A DNA stretch of 64,000 nt from positions 100,339 to 164,338 of the forward strand of contig JBEIPA010000012.1 in the NCBI GenBank assembly GCA_040377305.1, given 5' to 3'. The notes under the pieces are model-generated. The model was not told the origin of the DNA, ran no database searches, and saw only the letters and a program-made list of their open reading frames with translations. Every line of letters begins with the position of its first letter. Positions within the stretch are counted from its first letter, which is position 1. Source of the DNA: Flavobacteriales bacterium (GTDB taxonomy: Bacteria; Bacteroidota; Bacteroidia; Palsa-965). The position numbers were made by a program, and so were the translations under genes. Positions 10,644 through 57,103 of the stretch are shown in pieces.

Positions 10644-10815
10644 AGATCAAAAATAACGTATTAGTCCTGATTTTCGTGTATCGCGGCTGTTAATGAAAGT
10701 TGTTGTTGCTCTAAAGCCAGTAAAATCTACCACGAAGTTCACAAAGACACAAAGAAACAACTAACTAAACTTCGTGCCTTTGTGTCCTTAGTGGTGAAAA
10801 TAAGAGCATAGTAGT

Positions 10816-13335: not shown

Positions 13336-13493
13336 GAACATTCGACCCCTTCGGGGTCGGGGTGCCTCGCGTGTAATTTTTTCTATTCACATTAAACCCT
13401 TTCAGGGTTTCTTATCGAACGACGCTGAAGGCGTCGAATGTGAATAGAAAAAACGTGCGTGACACGACCCCGACCCCTAAGGGGTCGAATGTC
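13336..13493. repeat. Nested imperfect palindrome of ~158 bp (MITE-like, cruciform-capable element). It lies between the CPBP stop and the ridA start.
   Basis: The outer arms are gaacattcgaccccttcggggtcggggtg and cacgaccccgacccctaaggggtcgaatgtc. The inner perfect 17-bp arms are ttttttctattcacatt and aatgtgaatagaaaaaa. Two central local hairpins, aaaccctttcagggttt and cgacgctgaaggcgtcg, sit between them. The right arm overlaps the CPBP stop codon. Confidence 0.6.
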
Positions 13494-29541: not shown

Positions 29542-30324
29542 GTGATAGAAAAATACGACCAGATCGGAGTTGGATATAACACCACACGCAAGGTAGATCA
29601 TTACCTGCTGGGTCGTATGATTCACTTCCTGAGAGCAGAAAATACAGGAACGTATCTCGACATCGGATGCGGAACCGGAAACTATACCATTGAATTCAGC
29701 AAACGCGGCGTTCACATGGTGGGCATTGATCCATCGGAAGCGATGTTGAGTATTGCTCGTTCACGCACCAGTACTGTTGAATGGAAGAACGGGAAAGCCG
29801 AGAACATTCCGATGGAAGATGAAAGTGTTGACGGAATTCTGGCTGTGCTCACAACTCATCATTGGACAAATCAGGATAAAGGTTATGCAGATCTTGGTCG
29901 TGTGATGAAGAAAGGAGCGCGACTCGTCATCTTCACTGCAACGCCTGAACAAATGCGGGGCTATTGGCTAAACCATTATTTCCCGACCATGATTCGCGAT
30001 TCGGGAAAACACATGTTGCCCTTTGAAACAATCGAAGCAACACTGAAGAAAGCCGGATTCACAAGCGTGACTTCCGAAAAATATATGGTTACAAACGACT
30101 TACAGGATTTATTCCTTCAGTCGGGCAAACATAATCCGGCGAGTTACCTCGATGAAAATGTCCGTCGCGGAATTTCTTCTTTCGCCACTGCAAAAAATCC
30201 GGATGAGGTAAGCAGCGGACTCAACCAGCTTCGTGAAGACATCGCGACAGGCAAGATTGAAGAGGTGATGAAGAAGTATGAAAGTGAAGTAGGGGATTAT
30301 CTTTTCGTGGCAGCGCAGAAATAA
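29542..30324 (+). CDS. Class I SAM-dependent methyltransferase, small-molecule Methyltransf_11-like.
   Basis: Motif I LDIGCGTGNYT, an acidic post-I residue, and motif II/III DGILAVLTTHHW. No DNA-MTase DPPY/NPPY motif. GTG start. Confidence 0.75.
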   Translation: MIEKYDQIGVGYNTTRKVDHYLLGRMIHFLRAENTGTYLDIGCGTGNYTIEFSKRGVHMVGIDPSEAMLSIARSRTSTVEWKNGKAENIPMEDESVDGILAVLTTHHWTNQDKGYADLGRVMKKGARLVIFTATPEQMRGYWLNHYFPTMIRDSGKHMLPFETIEATLKKAGFTSVTSEKYMVTNDLQDLFLQSGKHNPASYLDENVRRGISSFATAKNPDEVSSGLNQLREDIATGKIEEVMKKYESEVGDYLFVAAQK

Positions 30325-30533
30325 TGTGCTAATGGGTTAATGTGCTAATGGGTTAATGTGCTAGTGTGTTAAAGTCGCAGTAACCAGACTTGTTCTAGTT
30401 CATCCCAGATTGCAATACAAATGGGATCCATTTCAGGGGGATTCCCATCGAGCAAGATAAGTTGATAGTGTTGTACTAATATATGGCCCATCGTTGGTTT
30501 AGCACATTAACCCATTAGCAAATTAGCACATTA
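30323..30533. mobile_element. MITE-like element of ~210 bp with ~35-bp inverted arms. The arms are built from alternating taatgtgc/taatgggt octamers. It sits between two convergent genes.
   Basis: The left arm is taatgtgctaatgggttaatgtgctaatgggttaatgtgcta. The right arm is tagcacattaacccattagcaaattagcacatta, its reverse complement. Both ends abut TAA or TTA stop codons, consistent with TA flanks. Confidence 0.5.
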
Positions 30534-31013
30534 TTTTTTCTGTTCCAGATTAATCTCTGTTACGAAATCTCCGCACACAAACCGAAACTTGTTCTGACCC
30601 CAACGATAAGCTGAAACCGTGTGTTCGTTGGTGAATGAGAATTTCGTTTCTCCACCTTTTGCTTTCTTACTGCTCTTTGTCGACATAACAGGAGTGAAAA
30701 TGTGGACAGCAACCATATTGGCGCTGTCCTTGTTTTCATATTGTTCGCTCACGTGAACTTCACCGATCGATGGTTCGTAACCCACGTTCGTTTTCATCGT
30801 GCCCGTAATGGTGTATGAAATCTTCGCAGTCGTGTTGAGTAAGTTGAGATTATTCTCCACGATTTTCACGGTGAAAGACTCAATCTTTATGTTGGGATTT
30901 TTCGTCCACCAACCGAGCTTGTGCACTTCTTTCACTTCGGTCTTAGCTTTCTTCGGGCCAAAACATCCGCAAAAAAAGGAAACAAGAAAAACGGCAACTA
31001 CGAAATATCTCAT
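30531..31013 (-). CDS. Hypothetical lipoprotein of 160 aa, immediately downstream of flotillin.
   Basis: Signal plus lipobox FFCGCFG. Confidence 0.45.
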   Translation of the reverse strand: MRYFVVAVFLVSFFCGCFGPKKAKTEVKEVHKLGWWTKNPNIKIESFTVKIVENNLNLLNTTAKISYTITGTMKTNVGYEPSIGEVHVSEQYENKDSANMVAVHIFTPVMSTKSSKKAKGGETKFSFTNEHTVSAYRWGQNKFRFVCGDFVTEINLEQKK

Positions 31014-37619: not shown

Positions 37620-37689
37620 AATAGGCTGAGGTGAATGTGAATGAGTGCAAAAATACCAATTTCTACCTTAATTGACGACAGTATTTTAA

Positions 37690-37724
37690 CCACAAAGGCG
37701 CGAAGCCGCAAAGGCACGCAAAGG
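37690..37724. repeat. Left 35-bp inverted-repeat arm flanking the GxxExxY gene.
   Basis: ccacaaaggcgcgaagccgcaaaggcacgcaaagg abuts the gene stop. It is the reverse complement of the arm at 38118..38151 with 1-2 mismatches. Confidence 0.7.
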
Positions 37725-38111
37725 TTAAAGTCCGTTGACAAACCGACGTATACCTTCCTTCATTCTTGGAACATGAAAGTTCAGAATAAAACCGAGTCTT
37801 TTCTCTGAAAGTTTTAAGTAGGAAATCACTTGTGCCTCATAAACAGGGTGCAAATCCGTGACAGCTTTTAACTCAAGTACGATTTCATCTTCAACCAGAA
37901 TATCAATTGCATAACTAGCTTCTAATTCTTTGCCTTTATAAAACAATGGAACATAAACCTGACATCTTGCGTTGATTCCTTGTGATTTTAATTCTTCGAA
38001 GAGACAGTGCTCGTATACACTCTCGAGTAATCCCGGGCCCATGGTTTTGTGAACTTCCATTGCACATGCGATTACTTTATATGATAAATCATTTATTTGT
38101 TGTGAGGTCAT
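37725..38111 (-). CDS. GxxExxY protein, a small PD-(D/E)xK-like family member.
   Basis: MTSQQINDLSYKVIACAMEVHKTMGPGLLESVYE carries the family GxxExxY motif. ~128 aa. The ORF-track start is an upstream alternative codon. Confidence 0.7.
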   Translation of the reverse strand: MTSQQINDLSYKVIACAMEVHKTMGPGLLESVYEHCLFEELKSQGINARCQVYVPLFYKGKELEASYAIDILVEDEIVLELKAVTDLHPVYEAQVISYLKLSEKRLGFILNFHVPRMKEGIRRFVNGL

Positions 38112-38117
38112 AATTTT

Positions 38118-38151
38118 CTTTGCGCGCCTTTGCGGCTTCGCGCCTTTGTAG
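38118..38151. repeat. Right inverted-repeat arm flanking the GxxExxY gene.
   Basis: ctttgcgcgcctttgcggcttcgcgcctttgtag lies 6 nt upstream of the gene ATG. Confidence 0.7.
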
Positions 38152-38175
38152 TTAATTGAAAAATGTTTGATGGAA

Positions 38176-38209
38176 GTAAAAAAGGACCGAAAGCCTAAGC
38201 CCCCGGTCC
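38176..38209 (-). terminator. Rho-independent terminator of ssb
   Basis: On the minus strand, ggaccgggggcttaggctttcggtcc followed by uuuuuuac, ~24 nt after the ssb stop. Confidence 0.6.
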
Positions 38210-38232
38210 TCAACCATGGCATCGGTTATTAT

Positions 38233-38589
38233 TTAAGCTTCCGCTTCTTGTTTTGGTTTTCCACCAAGGAGAAGAATATCAGTAGCCACAATTTCCGTGA
38301 TCCATTTTTTCTCACCTTTTGCATCGGTGTAATCACGGGTGTGAAGTCTTCCGCAGATAGCAACCTGGTTGCCTTTGTGCAGGTATTTCTCTGCAATGTT
38401 TGCGAGACCATCCCAGGCAGTGACGTTCACCCATTCGGTGGATTCGACACGTTTGCCCGCTTCATTCACATACGCCTCGTTTGCTGCGACAGAGAAACGC
38501 GCATTTTTCTTTCCTGATTCGAAGGTTTTGATCTCAGGATTTTTCCCGAGGTGACCGATAATCTGAACTCGATTTGTTAAAGCACTCAT
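38233..38589 (-). CDS. ssb: Single-stranded DNA-binding protein (short form without a canonical acidic tail).
   Basis: MSALTNRVQIIGHLGKNPEIKTFESGKKNARFSVA...WVNVTAWDGLAN gives an OB-fold SSB signature. ~118 aa. Confidence 0.75.
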   Translation of the reverse strand: MSALTNRVQIIGHLGKNPEIKTFESGKKNARFSVAANEAYVNEAGKRVESTEWVNVTAWDGLANIAEKYLHKGNQVAICGRLHTRDYTDAKGEKKWITEIVATDILLLGGKPKQEAEA

Positions 38590-38665
38590 AGTTAAACTGG
38601 ATTTGAAAAAATTAAACAATTGAAAAATTAACTGGTAAAAAAACTGATATACGTAATTGGTATTC

Positions 38666-39034
38666 TTATGCTGCATTCATCTGCGGGGCTTTACCCGAAT
38701 CGAGGAGCACGATATTGCTCGCTACGATTACTTCCTTAGTTCTGATTTTTCCCTTGCGGGTTTTGAATTCCTGTGTGACTACATTGCCAATGAGCAATAT
38801 TTTCTTGCCCTTGTGCAGGTGGCGTCCCGCACTGTCTGCAAGTTTATCCCACGATACAACGCGGAACCATTTTGTGGATGGTTGAAATTGCGGCTTCGGA
38901 TCACACGCATCGTTCGGTGTAACATTCATCGCGAAAAAATTCGCCATGCGCTTTCCGTTGCCAGCGGTCTTGACCACAGGCTGCGTTCCTAAACACACAT
39001 ACATTTTCACGTGATTGTTCTTCGGAGTTTTCAT
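38666..39034 (-). CDS. SSB-like OB-fold protein, second tandem paralog.
   Basis: VCLGTQPVVKTAGNGKRMANFFA...WFRVVSWDKLADSAGRHLHKGKKILLIGNV follows the same SSB pattern. 122 aa. Confidence 0.55.
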   Translation of the reverse strand: MKTPKNNHVKMYVCLGTQPVVKTAGNGKRMANFFAMNVTPNDACDPKPQFQPSTKWFRVVSWDKLADSAGRHLHKGKKILLIGNVVTQEFKTRKGKIRTKEVIVASNIVLLDSGKAPQMNAA

Positions 39035-39512
39035 AAGTACATTTTGATTTTAAAGATTAAACTGTTGTTGATTTCGATATTGACTTGACGTCGCTTGCAT
39101 ATATAGACTTCCATAGCAGACTGCCTACTGCACTACTGCATGACAGCCTACTGGAAGAGATTTTTCAAAGAACACCGCAAAGGTTAAACACGCATTCCGA
39201 ATTAGTCGGGAGTTAAACGTTTGTAGTCGACTGTAAGTATTTGTAAACGTTTGTAAACGGATATAGTATTGAAAAACAACTATATATGATGGCAGTGTAT
39301 ATTCTGTCGATCGAGCGATTTTAGCCGATTGAAGGCGATTTTCAAGCTTCGACGTTCAGCAATCGGGCGAAAAAACGAGTAGGATGTCGGTCAATATCTG
39401 CCTTGCATTCAGGTTAGCGAAGAATAGTTACAGGTTATCCAATGGTGCTGTCCGAATGCAGAAGTCATGATTCAGTTTGGTTATATTTGATCAGAACAAA
39501 GCACGAAGAACT

Positions 39513-46195: not shown

Positions 46196-46233
46196 ATCAG
46201 TCGGCAGTCAAGCAGTCTGGCAGTCGGCAGTCA

Positions 46234-46668
46234 ATGGAAATTTCGATAGCTAAGAGAAGCATGAAAAATTCAGTGGTCATTTTCTTTGTTCTCATTCTCA
46301 CTTTGGGAATGACTTCGTGTGAAAAAGATCCTGAAACAGTGCCTGAAGGAACGGTGCGACTTTTCATCAATGTCAATCACCATGGTTTACCAATTGCGAA
46401 TGCACGTGTGTTCCGCAAAGAAGGCGCAACAACCTGGCCTGGTACCGATACTACATTATACGATCAGGTTTATCAGGTAGACGCGAGCGGAAATCTAACG
46501 ATCGCTATTGGTAACGGCACGAAACAGTTTGTCTTGTATGCTGTTGGCGTCGATCCTTCCTGGGACTCAACAGGAACTACATTTGTACACGGCTACCAGT
46601 TTTACAACATTGTGACTGGAATCGGGGAGAGCAAGGATATTACTTCGGAGATTGGAGTTTCTGAGTAA
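46234..46668 (+). CDS. Hypothetical small lipoprotein
   Basis: Signal plus lipobox MTSCEKDP. 144 aa. A solo copy of the gcaaagg repeat lies immediately downstream. Confidence 0.4.
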   Translation: MEISIAKRSMKNSVVIFFVLILTLGMTSCEKDPETVPEGTVRLFINVNHHGLPIANARVFRKEGATTWPGTDTTLYDQVYQVDASGNLTIAIGNGTKQFVLYAVGVDPSWDSTGTTFVHGYQFYNIVTGIGESKDITSEIGVSE

Positions 46669-46786
46669 TCTTTGCGTTGCCTTTGCGTCTCTGCGCCTTT
46701 GCGGTTGAAAAGAAGAACGCCGATTTTCGTTATGCAGCTAGCACCTAACACAATCTGCATATCGGCACATTATTTCCGGGTATTGT

Positions 46787-47579: not shown

Positions 47580-47752
47580 GTCTGCGACGCTTTACACGGC
47601 GGCACAGCGAAACGGAGAGGCATTACGAATTCTAAGCCCACGCGTAACGGCTTCAGACGATCGCAATAGCGATCCTCTGTTTCTCGTGGGTTAAGAATAG
47701 AAAACAATTGGCTCCGTAGCGCTGTGTCGCCGTGTAAAGCCAGCGCAGCGAG
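47580..47752. repeat. GC-rich nested palindromic element of ~170 bp. It lies in the ldt 5' region and the FAH 3' region.
   Basis: The outer arms are gacgctttacacggcggcacagcg and cgctgtgtcgccgtgtaaagc. Three helices are nested inside: acggag/ctccgt, cccacg/cgtggg, and gatcgcaatagcgatc. Confidence 0.55.
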
Positions 47753-47753
47753 T

Positions 47754-48365
47754 CTATTTGATCAGAAAGTCGAAATGCTTCCTGCCTTCCATATATCCTT
47801 CAAGCCGGTCTCCAATCTTCACCGGACCAACCCCTGCTGGCGTACCGGTATAAATGAGATCGCCCATGCGTAAGGTCACAAACGTGGAGATGTATGATAC
47901 GAGCGCGTCGAACGTAAAAATCAGATCGCGTGTATTGCCTTGCTGAACGGTTTTTCCATTCAGATCAAGATGAAAGTCGATTGCATTCCTGTCTTTCAGC
48001 GAATCAACAGAAACGAATTCGCCAATAGGTGCAGAGTTGTCGAATGCTTTTGCTTTTTCCCAGGGCAAACCTTTTTTCTTACACTCGGCTTGAATATCGC
48101 GTGCCGTGAAATCAATTCCCAAGCCGATTTCATTGTAGTATCGGCTTGCAAACTGCGGCTCGATGTGTTTCCCTACTTTACAAATCTTCAGCACAACTTC
48201 AATTTCATGGTGCAGATCTTTGGTAAATGGAGGATAGAAGAAAGGTGCATTCTCTTTCAGCAACGCAGTATCCGGCTTCATGAAGATCACGGGTTCTTCC
48301 GGCACCGGAGAGTTCATCTCTTTTGCGTGTTCGCTGTAATTGCGGCCTATGCAGATAATTTTCAT
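47754..48365 (-). CDS. Fumarylacetoacetate hydrolase (FAH) family protein
   Basis: The internal ATG gives MKIICIGRNYSEHAKEMNSPVPEEPVIFMKP, a typical FAH/2-keto-4-pentenoate hydratase-like start. Confidence 0.75.
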   Translation of the reverse strand: MKIICIGRNYSEHAKEMNSPVPEEPVIFMKPDTALLKENAPFFYPPFTKDLHHEIEVVLKICKVGKHIEPQFASRYYNEIGLGIDFTARDIQAECKKKGLPWEKAKAFDNSAPIGEFVSVDSLKDRNAIDFHLDLNGKTVQQGNTRDLIFTFDALVSYISTFVTLRMGDLIYTGTPAGVGPVKIGDRLEGYMEGRKHFDFLIK

Positions 48366-48397
48366 CGAAACTTTTTTTAATCGCTTTGCGATTGCTT

Positions 48398-48493
48398 CAC
48401 CACGGCGGCACGGCGAGCACGGCAATTTATTTTTTGTGCGTCCTATATAATCCAAAAAAAAAACTTGCGCCGTGCTCGCCGTGACGCCGTGGT
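48398..48493. repeat. GC-rich ~26-bp inverted repeat with a ~42-nt AT-rich spacer, related to the 47.6-kb element.
   Basis: caccacggcggcacggcgagcacggc ... gccgtgctcgccgtgacgccgtggt. Confidence 0.55.
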
Positions 48494-48507
48494 AGAGCAG
48501 GCTACAG

Positions 48508-52802: not shown

Positions 52803-52955
52803 CAGTAGGCAGTTGGGCAGTAGTGCAGTTGGCAGTATATAGTGAGATTCGTTAGAAAATGTGAAGGTTTCAATCGAATCGGTCAGATCCGTGAGGACAA
52901 CATTTTTTGACTGCCAACTGCCCTACTGCTTACTGCCTACTGATGTTGAAAACCG
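52803..52955. repeat. Inverted pair of the dispersed ctgcctactgc-family repeat, ~34-bp arms with a ~80-bp spacer.
   Basis: cagtaggcagttgggcagtagtgcagttggcagt ... gactgccaactgccctactgcttactgcctactgatg. Confidence 0.6.
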
Positions 52956-53086
52956 TGTTCAAAACCACACTTTTCATTCCAGATACCGCCCTTCGATTCT
53001 ACCTAAACTTGTTCAACAATAAGTTTCTTAGGAATTCCAGTCGTAACAGTCAGGATTCGTGAATTAAAAAGATGAAAATAATTACA

Positions 53087-54739
53087 ATGAGTAAACTGTA
53101 TTTTCTCCCTGTGGTTTTGGTGGTTTCGGTGTCTGTGTATTTTGCATCGTGTGGTGGTGGAGAATCAAAGCATCACGACACGAGTCAGGTATTTCGTTTC
53201 AATGAACTGGGCGACGTAACTTCTCTCGATCCTGCAATGTCGGGTTCGTTTGAGAACAACTGGGCGGTGAATCAGCTTTTTAACGGATTGGTTGAGATGG
53301 ATGCAAATCTTGAAGTGCATCCTTGCATAGCAAAGTCATGGTCGATCAGTGACGATGGTTTGACGTATACGTTCTCATTGAATCAGAACATTTATTTCCA
53401 CGACGATCCGCAATTCCCCAACGGAAAAGGTCGCACGGTAACCGCTTCTGATTTTGTGTATAGTTTCAGTCGTTTGTTTGATGCAACTGTTTCGAATGCG
53501 TCGACACTCATGGATGCATTTGCAGAAAAAAATAGTTCGTTCGATCATGGAATGGAAGCACCGAATGATTCAACGCTGGTGATTCATCTTGAATATCCGT
53601 TCAAGCCATTCATCGGGATTCTCACCATGAAGTATTTTTCTGTTGTTCCGAAAGAAGTGGTTCAGTTTTACGGACAGGATTTCGATGTTCACCCAATTGG
53701 AACAGGTCCGTTCAAGCTGAAGAACTGGGAAGATGAAACACGACTTGATCTGGAGAGAAATCCGAATTACTTCAAGAAGGATGAGCAGGGAAATCAGTTG
53801 CCATATCTCGATATTGTTTCGGTGACTTTCATTGAAGACGCTGATGCTGCATTCCTGCAATTGCTTTCCGGCGATCTGGATATGCTTTCCGGTGTCGACG
53901 CAATCAACAAAGAGAAAACCTTGAAGTCGGATGGAACTTTGTCGGATGATCTCCAGGATAAATTTGTTTTGCAAAGTGCACCTTTCCTGAAGACAGATTA
54001 CATCGGCATCAATGTCGATCCGGCATACACCGGTAAAACGAGTCCGTTGCAGAATAAACTCGTTCGTCAGGCAATCAACTACGCCATCAATCGCGATCAG
54101 ATTGTGCGTTACCGCCGAAACAATTTGGGAACACCTGCAACTCAGGGATTCACTCCGCCGAGTATGCATGCGTTCGATGCTTCTTTACTGAAAGGATACA
54201 AATACGATCCGGACAAAGCGCGCGAGTTGCTCGAGATGGCAAACTTCCCCGGTGGAAAAGGATTGCCAACGATCAAACTCAGTATTGCTGCGAGTTATGC
54301 GGATATCGCTGATGAAATTGTGCACCAGCTCAATGAACTCGGAATTCCAGCCGAAGTAGAATTGATGGATGCAGGCTCGCTCACCACAGAAGTTGCAGAA
54401 GGACGCATCATGGCTTTTCGTAAATCGTGGATTGGCGATTACCCTGATCCGGAGAACTTCATGTCGCTTTTCTACAGCAAACATTGGTCGCCTGCCGGAG
54501 TAAATTACACGCATTTCTCCAGCACCGAATTCGATCGTTTGTACGAAAAGTGTCTCTCTGAGCAAAGTGATTCTGTCCGCAGCGATCTTTTTCTGCGTAT
54601 GGAGCAAATTCTCGTTGAAGAAGCTCCAGTTGTTCCTTTGTATTACGATCAGGTTGTGCGACTTGTAGCGAAAAATGTGACTGGATTGGCTGTAGATCCG
54701 ATGAATCTAATTAATCTGGAACGGGTTAAGAAAAATTGA
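53087..54739 (+). CDS. ABC transporter substrate-binding lipoprotein, family 5 (peptide/oligopeptide type).
   Basis: The internal ATG gives MSKLYFLPVVLVVSVSVYFASCGG, a lipobox. Length and conservation fit SBP_bac_5. Confidence 0.75.
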   Translation: MSKLYFLPVVLVVSVSVYFASCGGGESKHHDTSQVFRFNELGDVTSLDPAMSGSFENNWAVNQLFNGLVEMDANLEVHPCIAKSWSISDDGLTYTFSLNQNIYFHDDPQFPNGKGRTVTASDFVYSFSRLFDATVSNASTLMDAFAEKNSSFDHGMEAPNDSTLVIHLEYPFKPFIGILTMKYFSVVPKEVVQFYGQDFDVHPIGTGPFKLKNWEDETRLDLERNPNYFKKDEQGNQLPYLDIVSVTFIEDADAAFLQLLSGDLDMLSGVDAINKEKTLKSDGTLSDDLQDKFVLQSAPFLKTDYIGINVDPAYTGKTSPLQNKLVRQAINYAINRDQIVRYRRNNLGTPATQGFTPPSMHAFDASLLKGYKYDPDKARELLEMANFPGGKGLPTIKLSIAASYADIADEIVHQLNELGIPAEVELMDAGSLTTEVAEGRIMAFRKSWIGDYPDPENFMSLFYSKHWSPAGVNYTHFSSTEFDRLYEKCLSEQSDSVRSDLFLRMEQILVEEAPVVPLYYDQVVRLVAKNVTGLAVDPMNLINLERVKKN

Positions 54740-54814
54740 TTTCTAATCTGCGAAATCTGCGCATCTGCGGCGGATAGAAGCCATGATCTTTAGGGAAAAG
54801 GTGTAAATTTCAGT

Positions 54815-56415: not shown

Positions 56416-56467
56416 ATCAACTCAAGATTTATTTGAAGCCTGACTGCGAAAGTAGTTGGGTTTTTTT

Positions 56468-56522
56468 GTTCCGCCTCCGGCGGTTTGCCACAGATTCGCA
56501 GATTACGCTGATGGCTCAGATT
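56468..56522. repeat. Left inverted-repeat arm of the lipoprotein cassette (37 bp perfect match, 55 bp counting the extension).
   Basis: gttccgcctccggcggtttgccacagattcgcagatt, then acgctgatggctcagatt. It contains the ccgcc-tcc-ggcgg hairpin, which may double as a weak sucD terminator. Confidence 0.75.
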
Positions 56523-56523
56523 T

Positions 56524-56922
56524 TTATTTTCCTTTCTGAAGTATTCTTTCCAGCGATTGTTCCTCAGTCAGATAAACAATTGAATCCATTTCGGAGACAC
56601 TGACAACATAAACGGATGTATCATTCTTACCATAAAAATTCAGATACTGGCCTCCGCATGTACGTATCGAATCTTCAAGTCTAAATGCCCATAGAGCGCC
56701 TTGTGCATTGGCTTTTTTGCTGGTTATCTTAATGGATTTCGGGTAGAGTGATTCTAGGTAAGTGCAACTTGTTCCGGTCCACACGACTGAATCCAGATTT
56801 GAAATATCATAGTCTGTGTAGTATTCAGGAGAGATCGATGGACTGCAGTGGTGTTTATTTTCCGATGTCGGATCACCACACGCGATAGCTGCAAAAATTA
56901 ACAGAAGGAAAAAGTATCGCAT
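56524..56922 (-). CDS. Hypothetical small lipoprotein of 132 aa, bracketed by the 46-bp inverted repeats.
   Basis: Signal plus lipobox AIACGDPTS. Cys-containing. Confidence 0.45.
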   Translation of the reverse strand: MRYFFLLLIFAAIACGDPTSENKHHCSPSISPEYYTDYDISNLDSVVWTGTSCTYLESLYPKSIKITSKKANAQGALWAFRLEDSIRTCGGQYLNFYGKNDTSVYVVSVSEMDSIVYLTEEQSLERILQKGK

Positions 56923-56971
56923 TGAACTTGCCTTTCGTTAAAGTTAGTAATTCACAAATCATAATTAGCGC

Positions 56972-57017
56972 AATCTGAGCAATCTGCGAATCTGTGGCAA
57001 ACCGCCGGAGGCGGAAC
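56972..57017. repeat. Right inverted-repeat arm of the lipoprotein cassette.
   Basis: aatctgagcaatctgcgaatctgtggcaaaccgccggaggcggaac is the reverse complement of the left arm except for a 9-bp indel. It is built of tandem aatctgNgN 9-mers. Confidence 0.75.
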
Positions 57018-57103
57018 AAAGCCTCGATCTTGACTAAAAATTTTAGTTTTCCAAGCACGCCACTTTTTTGCAGTCTACTTTTGTAACATCAACTACGAAA
57101 GTT

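Follow-up and report, generated by a model that had tools for sequence, protein, structure and literature searches.

A GxxExxY nuclease-family gene between the arms of a conserved long palindrome in a Flavobacteriales genome and its relatives

Introduction

Genes that lie between inverted repeats are known from the RAYT-REPIN system, in which an enzyme is associated with repetitive extragenic palindromes (REPs; bioRxiv 10.1101/2022.05.22.493013, PMC5581495), from pairs of insertion sequences (IS) and miniature inverted-repeat transposable elements (MITEs), and from the intervening sequences (IVS) of 23S rRNA. The IVS of Coxiella has 428–444 nucleotides (nt), a 28-bp terminal stem, a folding energy of −143 kcal/mol and an internal open reading frame (ORF), and is excised by RNase III (PMC4990558). 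Here we have analysed a stretch of 64,000 nt from a Flavobacteriales bacterium (contig JBEIPA010000012.1, positions 100,339 to 164,338; the window hereafter), in which a gene of the GxxExxY family is tightly enclosed by the two arms of a long palindrome. The whole unit of gene plus arms, which we call the cassette, spans ~470 bp. Our preferred, though tentative, reading is that it represents a vertically inherited module of a nuclease and a palindrome, similar in kind to RAYT-REPIN, whose nuclease would act on its own repeats, probably on the paired arms in DNA. Each of the closest known systems (RAYT-REPIN, ORF-bearing rRNA IVS, IS/MITE pairs) departs from the cassette in at least one defining feature.

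As in the RAYT-REPIN system, inverted copies of a short palindromic repeat stand on both sides of the enzyme gene, and numerous further copies, either single or paired into hairpin doublets, lack the gene. No target-site duplication is seen in either case, and in both the enzyme is passed on vertically and under purifying selection. In addition, as for REPs and RAYTs, the gene predicts the repeats while the repeats only weakly predict the gene. On the other hand, the protein has a PD-(D/E)xK fold instead of being an IS200/IS605-like HUH/Y1 transposase, the repeats consist of 8-nt CRCNRAGR units and a TTNAC end in place of GTAG/CGTC-tagged REPs, and the GxxExxY gene usually lies inside a single palindrome rather than beside REPINs. 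RAYTs are also typically single-copy, whereas the GxxExxY family probably has more than one paralogue per genome, as hinted by its size and by the two genes in one of our loci (L074).

Compared with the 23S IVS of Coxiella and Leptospira, the cassette is likewise an element of ~430–470 nt with a terminal stem of ~28–38 bp around a small ORF, and the folding energies are close (−143 versus −151 kcal/mol, the latter predicted). An apparently horizontal acquisition followed by vertical maintenance is also common to both (PMC4990558). However, the cassette lies between ssb and a kbl-like gene and not in 23S helices 9, 25 or 45, with no rRNA match in the window; its ORF encodes a GxxExxY nuclease and not a member of the four-helix-bundle S23p family; and its arm sequence is conserved across phyla. 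It shares with MITE/IS pairs the terminal inverted repeats set tightly on a single ORF, and the short gene-less derivatives made of the two ends only, but target-site duplications, near-identical copies and a known transposase family are all absent, and it has stayed long at one locus. In the hok-type mRNAs of type I toxins, the two ends of the message pair over a long distance, so that the ORF of a protein which may be harmful is enclosed and its translation would be limited. The cassette resembles them in a predicted end-to-end pairing around an ORF, but lacks an antisense RNA, a small hydrophobic toxin and a wobble signature.

Architecture of the cassette and its protein

The repeat search of the window gives an inverted repeat whose 38-nt arms (37686–37723 and 38118–38155) are 95% complementary and separated by 394 nt. 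An ORF between near-identical inverted copies had been proposed from a first reading of the sequence (the original prediction). The 35-mer given there has two matches in the window, at 37690–37724 (0 mismatches) and on the minus strand at 38117–38151 (3 mismatches), and since none of 100 shuffled windows contains a match, a chance origin of the inverted repeat is rejected. The enclosed GxxExxY/PDDEXK_3 gene lies on the minus strand at 37725..38111, with the ATG at 38109–38111 and the stop at 37725–37727. The real ORF encodes 128 amino acids plus stop, while the gene callers started at a Met further in and gave 111.

Read on the gene strand, the upstream (5') arm (38118..38155, minus) is TTAAC-TACAAAGG-CGCGAAGC-CGCAAAGG-CGCGCAAAG and ends 6 nt before the ATG, and the downstream (3') arm (37686..37723, minus) is CTTTGCGTG-CCTTTGCG-GCTTCGCG-CCTTTGTG-GTTAA and begins 1 nt past the stop, in agreement with the positions first proposed. 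Against the family consensus TTNACCRCNRAGNCRCNRAGNCRCNRAG, which was derived from loci outside the window, the upstream arm shows 1 mismatch and the downstream arm none. When the cassette is folded as RNA, a 38-bp stem is predicted to close it, with a minimum free energy of −151.3 kcal/mol (z = −7.5).

The protein matches PF13366 (PDDEXK_3; E=2.4e-41, 141.2 bits against a cut-off of 22) and TIGR04256 (GxxExxY; E=1e-42, 145.2 bits against 35), and nothing else in Pfam or NCBIfam. Residues G27, E30, Y33, D70, E80 and K82 are invariant in an alignment of 29 sequences; the protein thus has both the GxxExxY motif and the catalytic residues D...ExK. The predicted fold is restriction-endonuclease-like and resembles restriction-type nucleases and Hjc-like resolvases, though no solved homologue was found by sequence. 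Judged by the invariant catalytic residues and by a ratio of non-synonymous to synonymous substitution rates (dN/dS) of 0.04–0.15 among orthologues, the enzyme is active-looking. A known defence or phage protein family is rejected, as searches of PADLOC, PHROGs and GenBank phages with the protein gave no match. The GxxExxY family amounts to 19,223 clusters at 50% identity, and PDDEXK_3 is listed as 'Unknown' in one classification paper. Several of the closest family representatives (P0241–P0247 and others) are 275–295 amino acids long with two matched stretches each, and so appear to be tandem-duplicated two-domain GxxExxY proteins.

Conservation of gene and arms at the ssb-kbl site

By exact-protein look-ups we gathered, in addition to the window's own contig (L001), five more cassettes, whose proteins show amino acid identities to the window protein of 86% (L139), 82% (L140), 78% (L002), 69% (L003) and 64% (L141, same as L142). 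All six orthologous cassettes lie directly downstream of ssb and its terminator, and the arms are kept in all six. Synonymous sites are saturated between the orthologue lineages (dS > 1, with identity at fourfold-degenerate sites of 0.14–0.48), and the small dN/dS values indicate strong purifying selection on the protein. Arm identity among the orthologues is 0.77–0.94, equal to that of codon positions 1+2. Since this level is held despite the synonymous saturation, the arms should be functional sequence and not relics.

Moreover, the two arms have changed in a coordinated way. We used ungapped arm alignments registered by hand (A3 and A4), as MAFFT misplaces the 3' arm of L003 and L141 by 1 base. 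In A4, 96.3% of cells pair, compared with 91.2 ± 1.1 in shuffles, and double-sided changes are found at 8 of the 37 stem pairs, compared with 4.4 ± 1.2; a value as high was reached in 1 of 500 shuffles, and slid controls gave 0–2. The second unit, for example, carries the identical change in both arms, reading CGCGAAGC in the window, CGCTAAGC in L140, CGCGAAGG in L002 and CGCAGAGG in L003, and a 1-nt insertion in both arms is common to L003 and L141.

An empty site in a relative, which had been proposed as a check, does exist. The outgroup L145 keeps the ssb-ssb-terminator-kbl synteny, with a 244-nt AT-rich spacer that contains neither gene nor arms; its Kbl is 85% identical, versus 93–99% in the cassette carriers. 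Because the outgroup lacks both parts and the six orthologues have both, gene and arms have been gained or lost together as a unit. In a metagenome scan with SSB for further empty sites, the only close match stops just past the ssb terminator, and two contigs with a different upstream gene (L143, L158) are uninformative on the ssb-kbl site.

An identical GxxExxY protein, present on 9 contigs, marks one and the same locus every time, and the closest non-syntenic homologues are ~60% identical. The idea of a selfish cassette, as originally put forward, or of a recently mobile one finds no support in these data: the cassette has occupied one locus through synonymous saturation, its protein has evolved at a dN/dS of 0.04–0.15, and it shows no target-site duplication.

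Bracketing across the GxxExxY family

A scan of species-representative genomes gave 80 GxxExxY loci, 44–62% identical to the query. A locus was called bracketed when the 150-nt flanks on the two sides of the gene shared a reverse-complementary pair that exceeded the 99th percentile of shuffles. By this measure, 57 of the 80 loci have flanking inverted repeats. The phyla among the loci include Bacteroidota, Ignavibacteriota, Verrucomicrobiota, Planctomycetota, Cloacimonadota and Hydrogenedentota, so the repeat is not confined to the Flavobacteriales locus, but is found in six or more phyla.

From 77 arms, the logo gives the consensus TT-N-A-C, CRCNRAGR, CRCNRAGR, CRCNRAG and then AT-rich sequence; in other words, an arm is a TTNAC end plus three or four 8-nt CRCNRAGR units, with a repeat length of 28–38 nt. 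The TT, A, C and purine spacers reach 86–96% in the logo, at positions that the search pattern had left free. In 533 kb we counted 129 occurrences of the three-unit motif, compared with 0–3 in shuffles, and 105 of the 129 are within 200 nt of a GxxExxY gene, while none was found in 210 kb of loci not selected for GxxExxY. An unbiased scan of 747 kb for ORFs tightly bracketed by any inverted repeat gave 35, of which 34 are GxxExxY.

The arms are often close to the coding region, the 3' arm being at most 12 nt from the stop in 32 of the 57 bracketed loci. The gene also tends to follow its upstream neighbour in orientation (61/71 loci, 86%, versus 115/180 control pairs, 64%; p=4e-4), and some cassettes are inside operons (fabD-fabG, a DegT polysaccharide operon) without visible promoters. 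In Bacteroides finegoldii, radA is followed by TTCACC-ACAGAGGA..., the gene, ...CTCTGTGGTGAA and the next gene. In Sphingomonas parapaucimobilis, the cassette is inside the essential fab operon, where fabD is followed by TTTTCAC-GCGAAGG-CGCGAGGA-CGCGAAG, then the ATG of the gene, and fabG-acpP-fabF come after it. The flanking inverted repeat of a Treponema record is only 12 nt long and has another sequence.

In a 20-locus alignment covering the family, 90.5% of cells pair between the arms, versus 84.4 ± 0.8 in shuffles, none of which (0/500) was as high. This covariation is significant but modest, which implies that most of the complementarity comes from two inverted instances of one consensus, with locus-specific matching on top of it.

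Copies of the repeat without the gene

Within the GxxExxY loci we counted 55 complementary pairs, of which 30 enclose 380–559 nt, i.e., the gene, while 10 enclose less than 60 nt and 8 enclose 60–199 nt. The loci with seemingly reversed polarity (L011, L040) turned out to have the gene between two complete short hairpins, and L026 and L147 show tandem hairpin arrays around the gene.

Without the gene, the repeat occurs in the window once each as a bare hairpin, as a solo copy and as a relic. The hairpin (10726..10798, without assigned strand) reads TCTACC-ACGAAGTT-CACAAAGA-CACAAAG, a 15-nt loop, and CTTCGTG-CCTTTGTG-TCCTTAGTGGTGAA, with no gene inside. The solo copy, whose presence had been anticipated, is a 3'-type arm at 46670..46709 (plus) with CTTTGCG units ending in GCGGTTGAA; it begins 1 nt past the stop of ORF 46234–46668, and has 1 mismatch to the family consensus (46681–46708). 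A core expected to recur near 39170 is there as well: the 13-mer CGCAAAGGTTAAA is found exactly at 39176–39188 (0.01 expected by chance), within the one-unit relic ACACCGCAAAGGTTAAAC (39172..39189, plus). In the cassette, this 13-mer is made up of the inner end of the downstream arm and the first 5 bases beyond it (37717–37729).

For viral DNA, IMG/VR was scanned with the strict 28-nt consensus, and 1.12 Mb around the matches was retrieved. At least 120 stretches of viral contigs carry this consensus, with at least 160 strict arm sites, at least 92 bare hairpins and at least 57 solo copies. The DNA retrieved around these sites contains no GxxExxY gene, while the positive control of the hidden Markov model search recovered 27/27. 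Given these viral sites, the GxxExxY gene strongly predicts the arms, but the arms weakly predict the gene. A few viral sites tightly bracket unrelated small ORFs (872–1228 and 9204–9542 in L222; 3032–3476 in L209), for which no convincing Pfam match was found. In L222, a phage-like IMG/VR contig, arms of the same consensus also occur in many intergenic gaps, and 0–14 nt separate arm and codon of the bracketed ORFs.

Interpretation and rival explanations

Under the reading that we tentatively favour, the ~470-bp unit would be a long-lived representative of widespread modules that carry a nuclease gene in the loop of a long palindrome. The nuclease would be an element-derived enzyme, now vertically inherited and flanked by its own palindromic repeat family, of which gene-less hairpins and solo copies would be scattered through genomes and phage-like contigs. 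It may recognise the arms, probably when they are paired as a DNA hairpin or cruciform. That the sequence of the arms, and not only their pairing, is conserved across phyla points to a factor which reads sequence, and in bacterial chromosomes the GxxExxY protein is the only constant companion of the arms. Because the unit has no room for a promoter and the gene is usually co-oriented with its upstream neighbour, the gene is probably expressed from transcripts that reach it across the upstream arm, and a stem beside the start codon would damp translation as a secondary effect.

Several points weigh against this reading. A protein of 128 amino acids would need an array or an oligomer to read a site of 28–38 bp. 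The coordinated changes specific to single units need base pairing or gene conversion, for which recognition by a protein is insufficient by itself. RAYTs are HUH enzymes, and we know of no PD-(D/E)xK equivalent. The arms are not exclusive to the GxxExxY gene, as they tightly bracket unrelated small ORFs in phage-like contigs. Furthermore, the co-orientation (61/71 versus 115/180) and the tight fit to start and stop suit a role at the RNA level equally.

Such an RNA-level element, comparable to an rRNA IVS or hok, is in our estimate somewhat unlikely. Here the arms would be transcribed together with the ORF and a stem of ~28–38 bp would close the cistron, either hiding the start region, so that the nuclease is rarely made, or being cut by RNase III, which would free the ORF from an operon transcript or one made by read-through, and shield the host operon from the insert. 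This explanation would account for the predicted closing stem (−151 kcal/mol, z = −7.5), for arms that hug the codons (6 nt to the ATG and 1 nt from the stop here, at most 12 nt from the stop in 32/57), for the 86% co-orientation versus 64% in control pairs, for the cassettes without visible promoters in the fabD-fabG and DegT polysaccharide operons, for a geometry near that of the Coxiella 23S IVS (PMC4990558), and for one G-U pair that persists in three orthologues. However, the excess of wobble pairs on the sense strand is absent, with 69 G-U versus 59 A-C in gene-bearing cassettes, and the 43 G-U versus 34 A-C in bare hairpins between co-oriented genes show no wobble bias either. A stem needs complementarity alone, yet the arm sequence is conserved across phyla; in the window an intrinsic terminator follows ssb, ahead of the cassette; divergent genes flank 10 of 49 bare hairpins (20%); and no Rfam family matches. 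For the last point, the Rfam search gave nothing at the gathering threshold and only CrcZ below it (14 bits, E=0.18), so a known RNA family is rejected. As for the transcript-sequestering stem suggested in the original prediction, the long-range stem is indeed predicted, and sequestration is possible, with two wobble tests giving no bias of G-U over A-C.

In the passenger model, which is unlikely, the palindromes would serve these bacteria and their phages as a common intergenic element without need of the nuclease, and GxxExxY would merely insert or be best tolerated there. It draws on the viral DNA, where at least 160 strict arm sites were counted in 1.12 Mb, with no GxxExxY gene in the sequence retrieved around them and with unrelated ORFs bracketed by some, and on the window itself, which has several other classes of 8-nt-periodic palindromes with a TTNAC-type end, including a hairpin pair that flanks an FAA-hydrolase gene and a palindrome that brackets an ORFan. 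Against it, the empty site in L145 has no hairpin, no other ORF is bracketed in ~480 kb of bacterial DNA flanking GxxExxY genes, and at least 70% of GxxExxY genes have arms across phyla, which is not expected of a passive association at synonymous saturation. The empty site also bears on a gene captured between REP-like palindromes, another early suggestion: a REP-like family agrees with the bare hairpins and solo copies, but the lack of a palindrome at the empty site makes capture between palindromes already in place unlikely here. We consider an active minimal insertion sequence very unlikely, although terminal inverted repeats set tightly on a single nuclease ORF, presence or absence of the unit as a whole and the gene-less derivatives would all suit arms that are terminal inverted repeats, a GxxExxY transposase and bare hairpins that are MITEs. 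There is no target-site duplication (among 152 elements, direct repeats that abut both ends were seen in 3 at a length of 3 nt, and in none at 4 or 5 nt), the orthologues share one site past synonymous saturation, and an identical protein on 9 contigs marks a single locus, with the best non-syntenic relatives ~60% identical. A TTAA target-site duplication is rejected, since TTNAC is part of the palindrome, whose complementarity ends 3 nt outside AC/GT. Finally, 38-bp inverted repeats around a 394-bp segment without internal promoter might suggest an inverton, with the repeats as recombination sites by which a promoterless gene is flipped on and off. This is highly improbable, for the orthologous cassette has the same orientation in 7/7 contigs, Pfam matched no recombinase among the genes called up to 3 kb away, and the family is 86% co-oriented with the upstream gene.

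Two further identities were tried and rejected. The arms are no intrinsic terminator, as their flanks are reversed (T-rich 5' and A-rich 3' on either strand) and the real ssb terminator is a separate hairpin. An integron cassette would have a single 3' attC with RYYYAAC/GTTRRRY ends, an integrase and attI, whereas the arms occur on both sides with other ends, and no integrase is among the neighbours.

GxxExxY is a very large family with an intact nuclease site and no known function, and the arms provide its first testable partner sequence. As a conserved and selected DNA or RNA partner lies beside most GxxExxY genes, the biochemical question becomes direct: does the protein bind or cut the arms? 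It is conceivable, but doubtful, that GxxExxY and the TTNAC-(CRCNRAGR)n palindromes constitute a second, HUH-independent REPIN-RAYT-like system, in which the enzyme would maintain or move the palindromes, with very long vertical inheritance in at least six phyla and spill-over into phages. If this were true, it would give a function to ~19,000 protein clusters (50% identity) that are now without one. The repeats themselves form a cross-phylum intergenic family with an unusual 8-nt periodic build, for which neither an Rfam family nor a paper was found in the literature searched. For the association of GxxExxY with palindromes, no report was found by family names or arm sequences in the full-text literature, which leaves most subscription journals uncovered. 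For annotation, it is relevant that GxxExxY genes sit in essential operons (fabD-fabG) and that gene callers miss the start, as for the window's own gene (111 versus 128 amino acids).

Neighbouring genes and other repeats

The genes around the cassette are all on the minus strand, in the order of two ssb genes, terminator, cassette and kbl-like aminotransferase gene. The two tandem ssb paralogues (38233–39034) are ~34% identical to each other and overlap by 11 nt, and the pair is kept in all relatives examined. The intrinsic terminator of the upstream ssb (38182..38211, minus) separates it from the cassette and is kept in all orthologues. On the other side, the octamer TATTTTTG at 37648..37655 (minus), 28 nt upstream of the kbl-like gene, is a putative promoter element, which we take to be a −7 box of the Bacteroidota type; a box of this type is also present in the empty-site relative L145. 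With this box, the cassette would be framed by the ssb terminator on one side and, on the other, by a promoter belonging to the kbl-like gene. A sigma-70 promoter scan, whose model does not cover Bacteroidota promoters, gave nothing, and inspection of the six orthologues by eye showed no conserved TAnnTTTG box ahead of the 5' arm.

Other repeats of the window have a similar periodic build. A second palindrome that brackets an ORF is found at 56465–57020. Its 65-nt arms, with 86% complementarity, have the sequence TTTGCC-ACAGATT-CGCAGATT-ACGCTGAT, which varies the unit build of the cassette. They enclose a lipoprotein-like ORF of 132 amino acids (56524–56922, minus), for which no homologue was found among 5.8 billion proteins. 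The solo array AATCTGCG-AAATCTGCG-CATCTGCG at 54741–54770, with units that are the reverse complement of the arm units in this palindrome, is located past the stop of ORF 53072–54739, at a distance of 5 nt. Between two convergent genes there are complementary arrays of the octamers TAATGTGC/TAATGGGT (30308–30373 and 30498–30547), 124 nt apart, each of which begins at the stop codon of its gene.

Two complete hairpins of CACGGCG units (47589–47740 and 48393–48499), with the ends TTCACC-ACGGCGG-CACGGCGA-GCACGGC, flank an FAA-hydrolase gene (47754–48455, minus), a layout also seen in some GxxExxY loci, where the gene is between two hairpins. A class with GGCAGT/ACTGCC units comprises a palindrome at 52803–52942 (73-nt spacer) and solo arrays at 46198–46234 and 39120–39150. 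ORF 46234–46668 has this class upstream and the CTTTGCG class downstream, and as the classes are different, the two flanking arrays are not complementary.

Outside the window, positions 1–300 of L143 carry a gene of the four-helix-bundle family of 23S rRNA IVS proteins (PF05635), followed by periodic pyrimidine-rich CCGTCCCCTTTT units; since the upstream side lies outside the locus, only the downstream repeats are in view. Further small 'orphan' gene families may have comparable bracketing. Two repeats of the window are of other kinds. A nested, non-periodic palindrome of ~155 nt (13338–13492) has outer arms of 26 nt (96% complementary) and inner arms of 32 nt (84%), and a tandem repeat at 238–791 consists of 2.1 copies of a 264-nt unit with 74% matches (Tandem Repeats Finder score 603).

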